From the NCBI GenBank assembly GCA_041650635.1, contig JBAZKV010000008.1, positions 2,253 through 66,252 of the forward strand: DNA of 64,000 bases, read 5' to 3'. The translations under genes were made by a program, and so were the position numbers. The notes beneath the pieces were generated by a model, which did no database searches, was not told the DNA's origin, and saw nothing but the letters and a program-made list of their open reading frames with translations. The stretch's first letter is position 1, and each line of letters opens with the position of its first letter. This document shows positions 4,520 to 45,695 of this stretch, in pieces. Origin of the DNA: Candidatus Margulisiibacteriota bacterium (GTDB lineage: Bacteria > Margulisbacteria > WOR-1 > JAKLHX01 > JBAZKV01).

Positions 4520-7033
4520 ATGTCAAATTACACCCCTAAAGAGATAGAGCCTCTCAGGCAAAGAGCCTGGCAGGAAAAAAAGCTTTTTGAAGCCGACAAT
4601 TCATCGAACAAGCCAAAATACTACGACCTCGTCATGTTCCCCTACCCTTCCGGCAAGATACACATGGGACATGTGCGAAATTATGCCATAGGAGATGTGC
4701 TCGCTAGGTACAAGAGGATGAAGGGTTTTAATGTCCTCCATCCGATCGGCTGGGACGCCTTTGGCATGCCGGCAGAAAATGCTGCCATCAAGAACAGCTC
4801 TCATCCCAGGGACTGGACCACAAAATGCATAGCGGACATGACCGTCCAGTTGAAAAGACTGGGACTTTCGTACGACTGGTCAAGGGAAGTGACCACCTGC
4901 AGAGAGGATTACTACAAGTGGACACAGTGGATCTTTCTGAAATTCTTTGAAAAAGGCCTGGCATACAGGAAAAAGGCAAAAGTGAACTGGTGCCCTAAAT
5001 GCGAAACTGTCCTGGCCAACGAGCAGGCAAAGGACGGAAAATGCTGGAGATGCGACAGCGCTGTTCGATCAAAGGACATAGAACAATGGTTCTTTAAAAT
5101 AACGCAGTACGCGCAAAGGCTCCTTGATGACATAGAAAAACTGGAAGGCTGGCCCGAGAGCGTTAGGATAATGCAGAGAAACTGGATAGGACGCTCCGAA
5201 GGAACAAGCATAGAGTTCGCTATAAAGGGTTTGGATAAGAAGCTTAAGATATTTACCACCAGGCCGGACACTCTTTTCGGGGTAACCTATATGACCCTTG
5301 CCCCAGAAAACCCGCTAACCGTAGAGTTGTCGCAAGGAACAAGACAGGAGAAAGAGGTCCTTTCCTATATAGAGAGCGTAAAAAGAAAGGACCCTTCGCT
5401 GCGCCAGGTGTCGGAAGAAAAGACCGGAGTGTTCACGGGGGCTTATGCGATAAACCCGGCCAACAACGAGACAATACCGATCTGGACTTCCGATTATGTC
5501 CTAATGGAGTACGGCACCGGCGCTGTCATGGCAGTTCCGGCCCACGACCAGAGAGATTTTGAATTCGCAAAAAAATTTGATCTTCCGATAAAAGAGGTAA
5601 TCGTTCCTAATGGTCCCTCACCCCGGCCTTTGGCCACCCCTCTCCCAACCCCTCGACTACGCTCGGGGCAAGAGGGAGAGGGGCCGGAGATCAGGGCGGC
5701 CTACACTCCCCCCGGCACCATGGTCAATTCCGCACAATTCAACGGCATGGACAGCAATAAGGCCATCGATGCAATAACCCTCTGGCTTGAAGAAAAAGGC
5801 ATCGGCAAAAAAGAGGTTAATTTTAAGCTGAGGGATTGGCTAATATCCCGCCAGAGGTATTGGGGTGCGCCTATTCCCATCGTATATTGCAATAAATGCG
5901 GGGCAGTTCCGGTACCGGATAAAGACCTTCCGGTAAAATTGCCCTATGATGTCAAATTCACGGGGGAAGGCGGTTCTCCCCTGCTGAAGGCTAAAGATTT
6001 TATCAGCACTGCCTGCCCCAAATGCGGCGGAAAGGCAAGCAGGGAAACCGACACGCTTGACACCTTTAACTGCTCCTCCTGGTATTTCTTAAGGTACACG
6101 AACACAGAAAAGGATTCTGACACGCCTTTTGAGCCAAAGGACCTCAAATACTGGCTTCCCGTAGACCAGTATATAGGCGGCATAGAACATGCGATATTGC
6201 ATCTTCTTTACTCAAGGTTCTTCTGCAAAGTTCTGAGCGACATGGGATTTATCCCTGTGGACGAGCCCTTTAAGAACCTTTTGACGCAGGGAATGGTGGT
6301 AAAAGACGGTGCAAAAATGAGCAAGTCCAAAGGCAATGTTGTTGATCCAGACTATATTATTGAAAAATACGGGGCGGACACAGCCAGGGTCTTTATCCTT
6401 TTTGCCTCTCCTCCGGAAAGGGAGCTTGAGTGGAGTGATGCGGGAGTTGAGGGGAGTTATAGATTTTTGAGCAGGATCTGGAGATTGATCAGCGACAATA
6501 AGCCCTCACCCCCTTCCCCTCTCCCAACCCCTCGACTACGCTCGGGGCAAGAGGTAGAGGGGCGCAGGACTGATGGGACCACCCGTATTCTTCACAAAAC
6601 CATAAAAGGTGTTTCAGAAGATATCGAGAGATTCTCCTTTAACACGGCGATCGCAAAGATAATGGAACTGCTTAACGCGCTTCAGGGTTCGCCTCTCGAT
6701 AAAAAGACCGCCGAGACGCTGCTTCTGCTGCTTTCCCCATTTGCTCCGCATGCAGCAGATGAGCTTTGGGAAAAAATAGGCAATACCGGAAGTACGCTGG
6801 AGCAGGACTGGCCGGGCTTTGATCCTGCTCTTGTTAAAGAAACCGAGATCGAGATACCAATACAGGTCAATGGAAAACTAAAGGACAGGATCATGATAGC
6901 AGCGGACCTGCCGGAGGAGCAGGTCAGGGAAAAAGCTCTTCAGTCAGAGAAGATAAAACAGTTGCTGCAGGGTAAAGAAATAGTAAAAGTTATATTTGCC
7001 AACAGAAAACTGGTAAATATAGTTGTCAGGTGA
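4520..7033 (+). CDS. leuS: Leucine--tRNA ligase
   Basis: [13 protein letters not shown] (HIGH), KMSKS, CP1 editing domain, YIGGIEHA. Confidence 0.98.
5615..5687 (+). repeat. Composite palindromic element in frame in leuS, copy 1
   Basis: CCCTCACCCC lead-in, outer CCCCTCTCCC/GGGAGAGGGG stem, inner 24-nt module at 5649-5672. Confidence 0.9.
6503..6562 (+). repeat. Composite palindromic element in frame in leuS, copy 2
   Basis: 6516-6562 matches 5637-5683 at 46 of 47 nt. Confidence 0.9.
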
Positions 7034-18005: not shown

Positions 18006-19079
18006 TTATACTATTTTTTCTGCTTCCAGCCTTGCCCACTTTTCCGCTTCAAGTATCTGACCGAGTTTGGGACTCTTGATAAACCTGTGTTTTTTCATAA
18101 CGGAAGAAACTATCCCGGGAATGTCATAAAACCCTATCTTTGCATTTAAGAACAGCTCCACCGCGGTATCGTTGGCTGCAGACAGGACAGCAGGAAGGGT
18201 CCCTCCAGTTTTCCCCGCCTTGTATGCAAGTTTAAGGCACGGGAATCTGTCAGTGTCCGGCTTTTGAAATGTGAGCTCGCCCGTTTTTGCAAGATCAACG
18301 CTGCCGTACGATCTGGGCTGCCTGTTCGGGTATGTCAGAGCATATTGTATCGCCGTTCTCATATCCGGAACCCCTATCTGGGCAAGAACGGAGCCGTCCA
18401 CAAATTCGACCATTGAATGTATCACGCTTTGGGGATGAACAACAACCTCGATCTTTTCATAAGGTATGCCAAAAAGATGGTGAGCTTCTATTACTTCTAA
18501 TCCCTTATTCATGAGCGTGGCACAGTCTATAGTTATCTTTGGCCCCATTTTCCAGGTCGGGTGCTTCAGCGCCTGTTTTGCCGTTACTTTGGAAAGCTGC
18601 TTTTTAGAATATTTGCGGAAGGGACCTCCGGATGCGGTAAGTATGATCCTCTTTATTTTTTTATTTGGACATTGGGAATTGGACATTGGGAATTGGACAT
18701 TATTCTGGGCTTCTCCCTGAATACACTGAAACACCGCGCTATGCTCGCTATCCAGCGGCAATATCTGCGCCCCATATCTTTTTGCCTCCGCCATAACAAC
18801 ATCTCCCGCAGCAACCAGTATCTCTTTGCTGGCAAGGGCAATGGTCTTTCTCTTTTTTATGGCAGCAATAACGGCAGCAAGCCCGGCGGTCCCGACAATG
18901 GCCATTACAACAATATCGGTTTTGGGGTCGGAGGCTATTTTTACAAGGCCTTCTCCGTCATTGTGGCCTAGATAGGCAAGCCCTGACACGCGGAATAAAG
19001 AAGGAAAGGCAGACACCACATCAAGCGCCTGCCTCCCTATAGATCCCGTTGAACCAAGTACCGCGATCCCCTTTTTCAT
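18006..19079 (-). CDS. dxr: 1-deoxy-D-xylulose 5-phosphate reductoisomerase
   Basis: LGSTGSIG, LASKE, PLDSEHSA, LTASGGPF, HPTWKMGPKIT, NKGLEVIEAH. Confidence 0.95.
   Translation of the reverse strand: MKKGIAVLGSTGSIGRQALDVVSAFPSLFRVSGLAYLGHNDGEGLVKIASDPKTDIVVMAIVGTAGLAAVIAAIKKRKTIALASKEILVAAGDVVMAEAKRYGAQILPLDSEHSAVFQCIQGEAQNNVQFPMSNSQCPNKKIKRIILTASGGPFRKYSKKQLSKVTAKQALKHPTWKMGPKITIDCATLMNKGLEVIEAHHLFGIPYEKIEVVVHPQSVIHSMVEFVDGSVLAQIGVPDMRTAIQYALTYPNRQPRSYGSVDLAKTGELTFQKPDTDRFPCLKLAYKAGKTGGTLPAVLSAANDTAVELFLNAKIGFYDIPGIVSSVMKKHRFIKSPKLGQILEAEKWARLEAEKIV
18665..18699. repeat. Heptamer tandem tract inside dxr
   Basis: TTGGACA/TTGGGAA alternating, 5 units; encodes VQFPMSNSQCP. Confidence 0.88.
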
Positions 19080-28921: not shown

Positions 28922-30916
28922 CTATCCCAGGTTAACGGGATCAACATCAACGCTCAGTCTTATCTGCCTGTTCTTTGACAGGACAGCAACCATCTCTTTG
29001 AGCTTTGATTTAATGATAGCCAAATCCTGTCCCTTAATCAACATCTGATATCTGACCATACCGCGAAGTTTTTCCAGAGGGGCTTTTACCGGCCCCAGTA
29101 TCTCTATTGTCCGATCAAAGGCTTTGAGCTGCGAACAAATCTGCAGCGCCTCTTGCCTTACCGCCTCCCGGTCTTTTCCGGAGAGTATCACATTGATCAG
29201 GAAAGAGAACGGAGGATATCCGAAATCCTTTCTGGACATTATCTCCGTGGCATAGAACTTTTTGTAGTCCCCTTCCACCGCGCTTGTGACGGCATAATGC
29301 TGAGGATTAAGGGTTTGGATCACAACCCTGTCCGGAGGTATAGCGTTGTTATCTCCTGCGGTTATACGAAAAAGGAAGTCGAACGCGGACTCGGCCGCCC
29401 GAAAGTCGGGAGAGTTCAGTGCTGCGTCCGCCGAGATCACCGCGACAAGCCCGAACTTCTTTTTTGGCAGGGCCTTTAGCACCATCTGCGTCCCTATAAG
29501 CACCTGCGCTTCGTCCTTTACAAAGGCCTCAAGAGCTATCGAAGCGTTCTTTTTGGAACTGAGGTTGTCCCTGTCTATCCTTATGGTCCTGACCTTCGGG
29601 AACAGTTTTCCTATCTCGGATTCTATCTTCTGGGTCCCCGCACCGAAATAATTGATCGAATGGCTGAAGCATTTAGGACACACGATCTTTTTTTCCGAAA
29701 GAAAACCGCATCTGTGGCACCTGATAGTGCCATCCGGAGAATGATATGTAAGGGAAAGCGAACAGTTGGGACATTCTATCGCATTACCGCAGGCGCCGCA
29801 GACCAAAAATGGTGCGTATCCCCTCCTGTTCTGGATCAACATTACCGGCTTTTGTTCATCAAGCGATCGCGCTATCTCTTCCTTTAGAACTGAGCTTAAC
29901 TGCCTTGACCTTTCTTCCTTTGTGTCAACAACAAGGATCTCCGGCTTGCTGTCATTGACGATTTGATCTTTCTCGCTAAAAAAATACTTTCCGTTCTGAG
30001 CCCTAAAAAAAGACTCTACGCTTGGGCTTGAAGAGCTCAGGATCAACCGGGCGGACAGTTTTTCTGCCATGAACAAAGCGGTATCCCTAACATGGTATTT
30101 GGGGGTCTGCTCGGATTTATAGGTGAACTCGTTTTCATCCTCAACAATAATAAGTCCGGGATAGTGCACGGGCGCAAATATCGCGCTTCTTGTCCCTATG
30201 GCTATTTTTGCTTTCCCCAGGTACAGCCTTTCCCATTCACAAAACCTTTCTTTTTCGGTCATATTGCTATGGATAACGGCAACAATATCTCCGAAGTTCT
30301 TTTTGAATTCTTCCACGAACCGGTTGTCATGGCCTATCTCGGGCAGAAGCAGTATGACCCCCCTGTTTTCTGAAAGGGTTTTCTGGGCCTCTTTAATGTA
30401 TGTACCCGTCCTTTCTGACAAACCCGCATTAAAAAGCAGGACAGGCTTCCCAGCATCTTTCTTAGTTTGTTCTTTGGGAATTGGAAATTGTTTGCCCCGA
30501 TCCCTGTCGAGGGGGAAATTGCTTGCCCCGAGCCCTGTCGAGGGGGAAATTGGAAATTCTATCCTTCTCTTCCCCGCCGTCTTCTCATAAGCCTCTATCC
30601 CCGGAGGAAGGAACAGCCTTAGGGCGCTGCCGAACAGGCAGCAGTAGTAAAAAGAGATCCACTTTGCTGTCTCAACTGAGCGTCGGGAAAACAGAGGAAC
30701 TCTGGTCCTTATCTCAAGTATTTCTTTAAGGCGCTCTACCCCGGCTGGGGCTTCTTTTGAAATAGCCGTGATATAGCCGACCGCTTTTGCCCTGCCAAAA
30801 GGGATAAGCACCTGAATCCCGACAGCAGCTCTTGAGGTTGATTCCGCAGGGATCTTATATGTATATTCTTTGTCGGTCTGGGGAGAAACCTTGGAAAGGA
30901 CTACCTGGACATACAT
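28922..30916 (-). CDS. priA: Primosomal protein N' (PriA)
   Basis: LLPEI, GTRSAIFAP, NRRGYAP, Cys-rich zinc motifs, GTQKIE, VDVDP terminus. Walker A region looks degenerate. Confidence 0.9.
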   Translation of the reverse strand: MYVQVVLSKVSPQTDKEYTYKIPAESTSRAAVGIQVLIPFGRAKAVGYITAISKEAPAGVERLKEILEIRTRVPLFSRRSVETAKWISFYYCCLFGSALRLFLPPGIEAYEKTAGKRRIEFPISPSTGLGASNFPLDRDRGKQFPIPKEQTKKDAGKPVLLFNAGLSERTGTYIKEAQKTLSENRGVILLLPEIGHDNRFVEEFKKNFGDIVAVIHSNMTEKERFCEWERLYLGKAKIAIGTRSAIFAPVHYPGLIIVEDENEFTYKSEQTPKYHVRDTALFMAEKLSARLILSSSSPSVESFFRAQNGKYFFSEKDQIVNDSKPEILVVDTKEERSRQLSSVLKEEIARSLDEQKPVMLIQNRRGYAPFLVCGACGNAIECPNCSLSLTYHSPDGTIRCHRCGFLSEKKIVCPKCFSHSINYFGAGTQKIESEIGKLFPKVRTIRIDRDNLSSKKNASIALEAFVKDEAQVLIGTQMVLKALPKKKFGLVAVISADAALNSPDFRAAESAFDFLFRITAGDNNAIPPDRVVIQTLNPQHYAVTSAVEGDYKKFYATEIMSRKDFGYPPFSFLINVILSGKDREAVRQEALQICSQLKAFDRTIEILGPVKAPLEKLRGMVRYQMLIKGQDLAIIKSKLKEMVAVLSKNRQIRLSVDVDPVNLG
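30474..30558. repeat. Heptamer tract interrupted by two 24-nt hairpin modules inside priA
   Basis: TTGGAAA units; two are split TTG|24 nt|GAAA, with inserts at 30491-30514 and 30522-30545. Confidence 0.85.
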
Positions 30917-44380: not shown

Positions 44381-45695
44381 GGTCCCTTGCCAGGGTGGCA
44401 GGATCGCACGAAACATAAATAATCCTTGAGGGTTTAAGTTTAATTACAGATCCTATGACCCCCTGTGAGCACCCCGATCTTGGCGGATCCAGCACAACGA
44501 CATCAAATTTGGCATCGGTGTCCAAGAACTGCCTGATAATAACCTCTGAAGTCCCGCATTTAAAGAATGCGTTCTTTATGCCGTTTACCCCGGCATTTTC
44601 TTTTGCATCATCAATGGCATAATTATTTTCTTCAACGCCCCAGACCTCCTTGGCTTTTTTGGCCAGCCAAAGAGATATTGAACCGGTACCGCAATAGAGG
44701 TCAAGAACTGCTTCTTTACCCGAAAGAGAGGCAAAGTCTTCAACAACAGAATACAATTTGAGCGTTTGAACGGGATTGATCTGAAAAAATGACTTGGCAG
44801 AGATCTTGAACTCTAAAGGCCCGAGTTTTTCCTTTATCTTTTCCTGCCCCCACAATGGCTTTGTCTTTTCGCCAAGGATGACATTGGTGGACCGGCGGTT
44901 TTCATTCACCACAACACCTTTAAGGCCAAACTCCTTTTCCTCCTGCTCAATACTTTTTGTTAATGCGCTTACCAGATTTCTTGACCCTGGGATATTTATT
45001 TCTTTAGCCACAAGGCACAGGATGGCTTCTTTGGATGTAAACCCCACCCTTGCCAGGACATGCCTTATCAAACCACTGCCCCTGTCTTCGTCATAAACAG
45101 GAATATTGAAGTCGCTTATCAGCTTTTTAACAGCATTGGAAATCTTATTCAAAAAAGGATGCAGAACAAGACAATTATCAATATCAACTATCTCATGCGT
45201 TCCTTTCTTAAAATACCCCATTGCCACCATCAGCTGTTTGGAATTTGTAATTTGTGATTTGTTTAGGATTTTGGATTTAGGATTTAGGATTTTCCTGACA
45301 GGGTACTGCACTTTATTCCTGTACCCCCAGGGATCTTCCATGCCTACGACGGGCCTCACCACTTCCGGAGAGATCCCTCCGATCTTTTTCATTGTGTCTT
45401 TAACTATCTGTTCCTTTAATTTTAACTGTGCGCTGTATTCTATGTGCTGCATGTCGCAAGCCCCGCACTTTTCAAAATACTTGCACGGCGGCTGCACGCG
45501 GGACGGTGAAGCGGTAAGGATCTTATGTATCTTTGCGCGGCAATAATGTGATTTTGCTTCAGCTATCCTTATCTCGAGTTCGTCTCCGGGAACACCGTTA
45601 TCGACAAATACCGTCATCCCGTCTATGCGGGCTATCCCCTGACCTCCTGCGGCCAGAGTCTCTATTTTTGCTTTAACTATCTGTCCCTGTTGCAT
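44280..45695 (-). CDS. rlmD: 23S rRNA (uracil-5)-methyltransferase RlmD
   Basis: TRAM domain, C..FEKCGAC, SFFQIN, DLYCGTG, DPPRSG, YVSCDPATLARD, DMFPHT. Confidence 0.94.
   Translation of the reverse strand: MQQGQIVKAKIETLAAGGQGIARIDGMTVFVDNGVPGDELEIRIAEAKSHYCRAKIHKILTASPSRVQPPCKYFEKCGACDMQHIEYSAQLKLKEQIVKDTMKKIGGISPEVVRPVVGMEDPWGYRNKVQYPVRKILNPKSKILNKSQITNSKQLMVAMGYFKKGTHEIVDIDNCLVLHPFLNKISNAVKKLISDFNIPVYDEDRGSGLIRHVLARVGFTSKEAILCLVAKEINIPGSRNLVSALTKSIEQEEKEFGLKGVVVNENRRSTNVILGEKTKPLWGQEKIKEKLGPLEFKISAKSFFQINPVQTLKLYSVVEDFASLSGKEAVLDLYCGTGSISLWLAKKAKEVWGVEENNYAIDDAKENAGVNGIKNAFFKCGTSEVIIRQFLDTDAKFDVVVLDPPRSGCSQGVIGSVIKLKPSRIIYVSCDPATLARDLKLFSGKYKTVKIQPVDMFPHTAHIECVAHLSR
45237..45289. repeat. 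Heptamer tract inside rlmD
   Basis: TTTGGAA TTTGTAA TTTGTGA TTTG TTTAGGA TTTTGGA TTTAGGA TTTAGGA; encodes ILNPKSKILNKSQITNSK. Confidence 0.88.

Follow-up and report, generated by a model that had tools for sequence, protein, structure and literature searches.

A 24-nt GC-rich module nested twice in a heptamer tract of priA in a Margulisiibacteriota bacterium behaves like a small dispersed repeat and recurs across bacterial phyla

Introduction

How does a gene come to hold the same short sequence twice, in two reading frames, within a tract of tandem heptamers, and still remain open? The question is raised by priA, the gene for primosomal protein N', in a 64,000-nt stretch of DNA from a Candidatus Margulisiibacteriota bacterium (contig JBAZKV010000008.1). 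This stretch is hereafter called the window, and all strands and positions refer to it unless another contig is named. A reading made from the sequence alone had noted two copies of a 24-nt module within the tract at 30474-30558 and had offered two explanations: either the inserts are specific for a target site, or a filled unit was duplicated in tandem. Our analysis indicates that the tract is probably a heptamer array in the PriA linker that has been invaded twice by a selfish element of 24 nt, copied into heptamer tracts and akin to the small dispersed repeats (SDRs) of Nostoc and to the Rickettsia palindromic elements (RPEs).

Results

Anatomy of the priA tract

On the plus strand, positions 30474-30558 read TTGGGAA TTGGAAA TTG[TTTGCCCCGATCCCTGTCGAGGGG]GAAA TTG[CTTGCCCCGAGCCCTGTCGAGGGG]GAAA TTGGAAA TT. 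The coding strand, from 30559 down to 30463, reads GAATTTC CAATTTC [CCCCTCGACAGGGCTCGGGGCAAG] CAATTTC [CCCCTCGACAGGGATCGGGGCAAA] CAATTTC CAATTCC CAAAGAA CAAACTA. The parts are listed below with their counterparts in two relatives: L134, an independent metagenome contig of the Joint Genome Institute (JGI), and L001, the DNA that encodes the PriA protein P0003.

28922..30916, minus strand: priA open reading frame (ORF), 664 aa; homologues with Pfam PF17764/PF18319/PF18074; PDB PriA chains at E about 1e-77
30546..30559, minus strand: upstream heptamers GAATTTC CAATTTC (coding strand); L134 has GAATTAC CAATTAC here
30522..30545, minus strand: module copy A, CCCCTCGACAGGGCTCGGGGCAAG (coding strand), peptide PSTGLGAS
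30515..30521, minus strand: spacer heptamer CAATTTC separating modules A and B; identical spacer in L134
30491..30514, minus strand: module copy B, CCCCTCGACAGGGATCGGGGCAAA, peptide PLDRDRGK; not in L001
30463..30490, minus strand: downstream heptamers of growing decay, CAATTTC CAATTCC CAAAGAA CAAACTA; the L001 counterpart is CAAGTTT CAGGTTT CAAGTTC

The 24-nt unit, CCCCTCGAC-AGGG-CTCGGGGCAAG, is present in two copies at a spacing of 31 nt and is read in two frames. Inspection of the sequence, Tandem Repeats Finder (30483-30552, period 31, 2.3 copies, 94% matches, score 126) and a search for the 23-nt module core with at most 3 mismatches (4 sites in the window versus 0 in 100 shuffles) all agree with the heptamer tract and two modules as first described. 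The translation, EFPIS-PSTGLGAS-NF-PLDRDRGK-QFPIPKEQ, likewise confirms that the two copies yield different peptides and leave the ORF open. The claim that both inserts occur at a shared TTG|GAAA point needs recasting. Both copies do have the same junction, but this is merely one notation: in the coding-strand register each module lies between whole heptamers, and the junction is ambiguous by 1 nt. Copy B of the window has two odd bases, T at 30491 and T at 30501, where other strains carry the consensus C and G.

An AlphaFold model of PriA, built from an alignment, has a mean predicted local distance difference test score (pLDDT) of 79.5 and one internal segment below 50, residues 122-154. The tract and its modules encode residues 120-148 and overlap this segment. 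The linker region is highly variable in both length and sequence among relatives, and it does not align to solved PriA structures. Judging from the model, the insert lies in a flexible or disordered linker that joins the N-terminal 3'-DNA-binding domain to the helicase core, and priA would tolerate it because what it encodes is predicted to be disordered (pLDDT <50).

A separate observation concerns the protein itself. The canonical helicase motifs are absent from the window PriA (residues about 160-170, 259-263, 295-297 and 520-527), as they are from P0002, P0003 and P0005; the changes are Walker A GxGKT to AGLSERT, DEEH to DENE, SAT to SSS and motif VI GRAGR to AGDNN. P0004 and more distant PriA homologues retain the canonical motifs. 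By these sequence differences, PriA of this clade may be without ATPase or helicase activity.

Copy-number states in relatives and strains

Comparison of the PriA linker in relatives, a check suggested together with the original observation, recovered 0-, 1- and 2-copy states at the matching position. Among the closest aligned proteins the module is missing from P0002 (66% identity), occurs once in P0003 (67%), as PSTGLGAS, and twice in the window; the linker lengths of the three states differ by exactly 8 and 16 residues. The empty-site relative P0002 was compared at the protein level. L001 is about 70% identical to the window at the DNA level over its whole contig and carries a single module copy, followed by the different heptamer-like tract listed above. 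L134, 87% identical to the window over 10 kb, has the two-copy structure with heptamers CAATTAC/CAATTTC.

A three-way DNA alignment of the window, L134 and L001 contains one 24-column gap, in L001, and the flanking heptamers match unit for unit. Copy A of the window is 24/24 identical to the single L001 copy and to both L134 copies; for lineages with only about 70% DNA identity the chance of this is 1.7e-4. This conservation is not at the protein level, because the encoded linker is hypervariable. By the three-way alignment, copy A predates the split from L001 and copy B the split from L134, and the unit of gain or loss at priA is the bare 24-mer. The heptamer units themselves are more alike within than between lineages (CAATTTC, CAATTAC, CAAGTTT), which is concerted evolution of the tract.

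We also note that priA of L001 is called as two ORFs (119-415 and 424-2088), with an apparent frame change, judged by eye (395-430), some 70 nt upstream of the module. The split reflects either a low-coverage assembly error or a pseudogene.

The species is found in landfill, sludge and wastewater metagenomes. Strains were surveyed in Logan contigs from 12 public runs of several studies, in which only tract-spanning contigs are informative. Every such contig keeps two copies, with no deletion, insertion or joint there. An assembly artefact was ruled out by these contigs, which agree in each run, among the 12 examined, that has contigs across the tract, together with the independent JGI contig L134. 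In some strains copy A is altered, by 30529 C>T and 30543 G>T, which map to stem positions 17 and 3.

A second locus, not in the window, was found in seven runs (X3-X6, X10, X11 and X18) at a depth matching that of priA. It reads ...GACA TTGGAAA TTGGAAA TTG[module]GAAA TTGGAAA TTTGAAA TTCGTAG..., in sequence form ...GACATTGGAAATTGGAAATTG[CTTGCCCCGAGCCCTGTCGAGGGG]GAAATTGGAAATTTGAAATTCGTAGCAAATGTCCCC..., and its module type, TTGGAAA heptamer family and junction are all as in priA. The locus is on no contig from X1, X2, X12, X14 or X16; in runs X1, X2 and X14 the priA tract is that of the window-type strain. It may be a presence/absence difference between strains.

The 24-mer as a dispersed family

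We scanned one genome per species for exact matches to CCCCTCGACNNNNNTCGGGGCAA. The genome and metagenome scans needed exact arms and hence favour young copies; the counts are not totals. At least 120 genome stretches matched. A chance origin of the multi-phylum matches was rejected: about 17 exact matches are expected at uniform base composition, and the positions left free by the search are 85-96% fixed (G at m13 in 96%, C at m14 in 96%, and G at +1, directly after CAA, in 85%). Among the matches listed, the module occurs in more than 10 phyla, in the isolate assemblies of Microcoleus (L114) and Sphingomonas solaris (L072), and at 2-3 loci per genome in 12 genomes. Its hosts include Acidobacteriota, many Patescibacteria, Saccharibacteria (with a complete chromosome), Margulisiibacteriota, Saganbacteria, Cyanobacteria, Sphingomonas, Zixibacteria, Nitrospiraceae and others. 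The commonest loop is TTCG, and the free-position pattern is found in low-GC and high-GC genomes alike; the AGGG loop is rare (1/122 in the general scan). The 24-mer is a real multi-copy family.

Nine viral contigs carry the module, all of them high-GC. In the high-GC genomes L018, L052, L055, L064, L066 and L133, the 24-nt unit and variants of it (e.g. CCCTTCGACTCCGCTCAGGGTAAG) form head-to-tail arrays with a 24-nt period. A BLAST search of the plasmid database PLSDB with the module gave weak matches only, none on Nostoc plasmids, and a literature search for the module sequence returned unrelated primers only. None of the Rfam families matched at the gathering threshold, and a relaxed search gave sub-threshold chance matches only. 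A strong hairpin as a conserved feature of the bare 24-mer is not supported, its z being -0.2 to -1.0; only a 48-nt composite in leuS, described below, folds significantly.

With its commonest loops the 24-mer is stop-free in all six frames. At some intergenic loci (L058, L081, L119, L127 and L019) the 3' CAAG of the module runs into GGAG/GAGG a few bases before an ATG, forming an AAGGAGG-like ribosome-binding site. In L070, two neighbouring pilin-like ORFs (5593-6063 and 6363-6815) each contain an antisense module encoding a leader (…LPRAKSRG) before the prepilin motif FTL(V/I)EL.

Association with heptamers and palindromes

The other check that had been suggested was a genome-wide junction logo; here module flanks were compared across phyla. 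The 24-mer was removed from 151 copies from many phyla and the 7 nt before it were compared with the 7 nt after, at least 6/7 identities being taken as a match. The flanks matched in 12/151 copies (7.9%) versus 0.27% of 4,380 control positions (p = 2e-14), and in 8/147 (p = 9e-9) once the four priA copies of the window and L134 were left out. In the same 151 copies, periods of 5, 6, 8, 9 and 10 gave no flank-match signal. The outcome is mixed, with 12 copies in phase between heptamers and 139 not. Target-site specificity is upheld as a preference, but the preferred target is the heptamer tract as such and not TTG|GAAA. A general model of 7-bp target-site duplication was dropped, as 139/151 copies have no flanking direct repeat.

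The heptamer sequence differs between genomes while the module stays the same. The clearest case is a cyanobacterial metagenome-assembled genome (MAG) in which an (AATTACC)n tract holds two modules 52 nt apart. Elsewhere the module lies in a (CTGTCAA)n tract in Microcoleus, in (CCAAATC)n and (CGAATCC)n tracts in Acidobacteria, in a (GATTAAG)n tract in a Saganbacterium and, in a WOR-1 genome, with TTGCCAG/TTGCCAA heptamers inside mutL. The flank match holds only for the unit defined exactly as CCCC...CAAG, and its ends are fixed by in-phase flanks at 8 independent loci. Therefore, the element has defined ends.

Palindromes are a further context. In 4% of copies versus 0.6% of controls the flanks form a stem of 7 bp or more, placing the module at the tip of longer palindromes. 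At the Zixibacteria loci L023 and L048, and at L036 and L042, longer perfect inverted repeats such as GGGCAGGCA...CCTGCCCC carry it at their tip.

Coding context

Orientation was examined at loci with GC below 0.56 and in ORFs of at least 150 codons, the gene calls being ORF-based. At these low-GC loci 54/75 copies lie inside such ORFs. Within long ORFs, 41 copies are sense versus 6 antisense (p = 1.8e-7), and all three frames are used. A Pfam scan of 20 host ORFs identified 18 recognisable genes. The sense hosts include leucyl-tRNA synthetase (LeuRS), an AddA-like helicase-nuclease, MutL, topoisomerase I (TopA), UvrC, Fpg, RarA and cysteinyl-tRNA synthetase (CysRS), as well as a class II aminoacyl-tRNA synthetase, CarA, a ComM-like ATPase and a P-type ATPase; the antisense hosts include Sua5/YrdC, a hydrolase and a C39 peptidase. 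Shine-Dalgarno-like motifs are thought to be selected against inside genes. An antisense copy puts a Shine-Dalgarno-like GAGG into the mRNA, and part of the sense bias could have this milder explanation.

Other copies and heptamer tracts in the window

The window holds 4 module copies at 3 sites in 64 kb, and no further decayed copies were found in it beyond chance at up to 6 mismatches. The two copies outside priA lie in leuS, and two further heptamer tracts have no module:

5637..5684, plus strand: leuS site 1, a 48-nt palindrome CCCCTCTCCCAA[CCCCTCGACTACGCTCGGGGCAAG]AGGGAGAGGGGC with the module core (5649-5672) at its tip, in frame and sense; absent from L146
6516..6563, plus strand: leuS site 2, a second 48-nt composite with the core at 6528-6551, in frame and sense; present in P0121/L146, absent from more distant LeuRS
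18665..18701, minus strand: heptamer tract TTGGACA/TTGGGAA without a module, an in-frame insert in dxr; its 14 aa are missing from the homologue PDB 6mh4
45235..45292, minus strand: heptamer tract TTTGTAA/TTTAGGA without a module, an in-frame insert in an rlmD-like methyltransferase gene; its 17 aa are missing from the homologue PDB 5xj1

Both leuS copies have the loop TACG and take the composite form CCCCTCTCCCAA[core]AGGGAGAGGGG. Neither has a heptamer junction; each sits at the tip of its 48-nt palindrome. The composite folds as RNA at -29.4 kcal/mol (z -4.1). Each of the two palindromes is preceded by CCCTCACCCC.

L146, a contig of the same species with 95.3% identity over 11.4 kb, shares the site-2 element and lacks the one at site 1, where it carries a different small palindrome (8746-8920 of L146, GTAGCGAC...GTCGCTAC). 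Site 1 is the sole region with indels of at least 6 nt in this 11.4-kb comparison, and both site-1 alleles coexist in one landfill sample, run X2. Because L146 differs at site 1 and both alleles are present in X2, leuS elements turn over within the species and have done so recently. In LeuRS of other Saganbacteria, other short low-complexity inserts occupy the same two loops, which look like hotspots for small-element insertion.

Module orientation in the window tracks the gene and not the DNA strand, leuS being on the plus and priA on the minus strand. Orientation set by the direction of replication was judged unlikely in the window: the leuS and priA copies lie on opposite strands, each is sense, and there is no skew reversal between them. 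The dxr tract belongs to the same heptamer family as that of priA. In the window Dxr (18006-19079), about 35 residues of the N-terminal NADPH-binding domain are apparently missing around residues 35-42 by comparison with solved Dxr structures; the alignment passes directly from residue 34 to 43 of the query, and from 33 to 77 of the PDB chain.

Discussion

Comparison with known small elements

In Nostoc punctiforme, SDRs reportedly measure 21-27 nt and are often embedded in tandem heptamer repeats, as described by Elhai and colleagues in 2008. The same authors are said to have proposed SDR1-8 as the smallest mobile elements, possibly moving through RNA. The present module shares this behaviour in several respects. 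Its unit of 24 nt falls in the size class reported for SDRs. As a family it is dispersed and multi-copy like them; within this genome it may be so too, given the four copies in the window and a further locus in related strains. It is nested in heptamers, as SDRs reportedly are, with in-phase flanks well above controls at period 7 only. It also shows exact presence or absence at matching sites, the 8-aa or 24-nt difference between P0002, L001 and window/L134. On the N. punctiforme plasmid pNPUN01 we found a heptamer tract split by an insert of ~29 nt; its sequence differs from the module. Two papers citing Elhai and colleagues describe SDR5 as inserting precisely into the HIP1 octamer (PMC4390886, PMC5861425), and one of them reports SDRs as confined to Nostocaceae (PMC5861425). 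The module, in contrast, is found in Margulisiibacteriota, Saganbacteria, Patescibacteria, Acidobacteriota, Cyanobacteria and other phyla. Unlike SDRs, it sits in frame inside essential genes and is sense-biased. By its LeuRS homologues, the window host belongs to Margulisiibacteriota/Saganbacteria (WOR-1), a sister lineage of Cyanobacteria. Taken together, the module behaves like an SDR, and it apparently differs in sequence as well as in host lineage, in its sense-biased position inside essential genes and in its spread over many phyla.

RPEs are selfish elements found in frame in unrelated housekeeping genes and tolerated in permissive parts of proteins (PMC10969869). The present module resembles them in lying in frame in PriA, LeuRS, MutL, TopA, UvrC and other such genes. 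However, RPEs are ~150 bp, clearly palindromic, read as a conserved peptide in one frame and restricted to Rickettsia (PMC10969869), whereas this element has 24 nt, folds weakly, is read in three frames and occurs in many phyla. Repetitive extragenic palindromic (REP) sequences and REPINs, which are mobilised by RAYT (Y1) transposases, are also short, GC-rich, imperfect palindromes that are multi-copy and dispersed (PMC3116915). Some copies of the module stand at the tip of longer palindromes, and the Sphingomonas copy lies near an inverted copy of similar sequence. REPs are extragenic, whereas the present element is mostly intragenic by the low-GC count given above. We know of no link between REPs and heptamer tracts.

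The short tandemly repeated repetitive (STRR) sequences of filamentous cyanobacteria have a 7-bp unit and no known function, and many bacteria have heptamer repeats in excess, possibly through polymerase slippage (PMC2670836, PMC4692102). The priA host tract is likewise made of tandem 7-nt units, and their favoured sequence is characteristic of the genome. Unlike STRRs, the present tracts are in-frame coding inserts in a non-cyanobacterial sister lineage, and one of them carries the 24-nt module. Miniature inverted-repeat transposable elements have terminal inverted repeats, a target-site duplication and a length above ~50 bp; a 24-nt unit, mostly without flanking direct repeats, differs from them.

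How the tract was filled

The invading element would have the form 5'-CCCCTCGAC-NNNN-CTCGGGGCAAG-3' on the sense strand, GC-rich and 24 nt long, which would place it among the smallest mobile DNA elements known. Being eight codons without a stop, it could be carried in frame, and cheaply, by the surface loops and linkers of essential proteins. Copy-in would take place between heptamer units, in a process probably tied to transcription or to exposed single-stranded DNA, because the element is enriched in two contexts, slipped heptamer tracts and hairpin tips. The second priA copy would be a separate copy-in of 24 nt, favoured because one in-frame event suffices, because the one-copy relative differs by exactly 24 nt and because the same junction is seen at the second locus. 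Its probable template is the adjacent copy, since the rare AGGG loop is found in both.

The alternative nearest to the original suggestion of a duplicated filled unit, and one that we judge less likely but still credible, is a single insertion followed by slippage or unequal exchange between the flanking heptamers, which would duplicate a 31-nt unit, with loss of one 7-nt unit restoring the frame; the second junction would then not have been targeted. The period of 31 at 94% identity, the 24/24 identity of the two L134 copies and the rare loop shared by both priA copies fit such a history, identical heptamers on either side of the module are substrates for slippage, and concerted tract evolution means that units are gained and lost. 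However, the second copy is explained less economically by duplication of the filled unit. A gain of 31 nt shifts the priA frame and needs a second event, and the relative with one copy differs by 24 nt and not by 31, the number of heptamers on either side being equal. Nor is there the copy-number variation of a simple variable-number tandem repeat: L134 and, among the 12 runs, every strain with tract-spanning contigs have two copies each. Moreover, a separate locus has the same module at the same junction, and the tract of the cyanobacterial MAG is doubly occupied too, at a spacing of 52 nt.

It seems improbable that the whole block of heptamers, module and heptamers is mobile, so that the TTG|GAAA junction at priA and at the second locus was inherited from a common source. 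The second locus does match the window over 45 nt, with heptamers to the left and right of the module, two Saccharibacteria loci of one genome (L034 and L057) agree over ~20 nt in either flank of the module, and tracts of one heptamer family recur in priA and dxr of the window. Against this, the module is constant across phyla while heptamers vary by genome, the tracts in dxr and rlmD are module-free, gain or loss between relatives involves the bare 24-mer, and the linker of P0002 has the length of that of L001 minus 8 aa. Selection for the 24-mer itself, for example as an mRNA hairpin with an effect on stability or ribosome pausing, as a DNA site bound by a protein or as a beneficial lengthening of the linker, is more improbable still. 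Its arms are conserved across phyla, its sense-strand bias is strong, the predicted RNA hairpin has a G-U pair that can pair only in sense-strand RNA, and some intergenic 3' ends join an AAGGAGG-like ribosome-binding site upstream of ATG. On the other hand, it folds no better than shuffled sequence (z -0.2 to -1.0), variants in strains break pairs uncompensated, the two priA peptides are unrelated in a disordered and hypervariable linker, close relatives manage without the element, and no Rfam family matches it.

Several points weigh against the preferred reading, that a selfish 24-nt element was copied twice into the tract. The 139/151 copies that are not beside heptamers, and the lack of a target-site duplication, mean that a single insertion rule is not demonstrated. 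The hairpin of the bare 24-mer is weak (-7.2 kcal/mol, z -0.2 to -1.0). The strain variants of copy A break base pairs with no compensation, and because of this the hairpin appears not to be preserved at the priA locus. The unit-for-unit match of the flanking heptamers is weak evidence because the tract evolves in concert, and the AGGG loop common to both priA copies fits local duplication as well as copy-in. No 1- or 3-copy strain was found among the tract-spanning contigs of public runs, and no ongoing mobility was caught at priA. No mobilising enzyme was identified, the window genes not having been screened for one.

Significance

A broader reading, which we put forward as a tentative possibility, is that the 24-mer CCCCTCGAC-N4-CTCGGGGCAAG is a pan-bacterial, exact-ended mobile element, smaller than any established transposable unit, which spreads both within phyla and from one phylum to another and is copied into coding DNA on the sense strand through a transcription-tied or RNA-templated mechanism with a preference for heptamer tracts and hairpin tips. 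If so, a widely shared host or mobile enzyme would be required, and many short 'junk peptide' inserts in housekeeping proteins of uncultured bacteria would be explained.

If the priA tract was filled as we propose, heptamer nesting of the SDR type, so far a feature of Nostoc-type cyanobacteria only, would extend to their non-photosynthetic sister lineage and to many phyla. An element of eight codons that is stop-free in every frame could then enter priA, leuS and such genes without breaking them. Its exact ends, sense bias and heptamer preference would constrain the insertion mechanism and make a search for the enzyme feasible, for example through co-occurring gene families. A class of spurious-looking inserts and 'hypothetical' peptides in MAG proteins would be explained, and short GC-rich in-frame inserts in alignments from uncultured bacteria may be mobile DNA and not lineage-specific features of the proteins.

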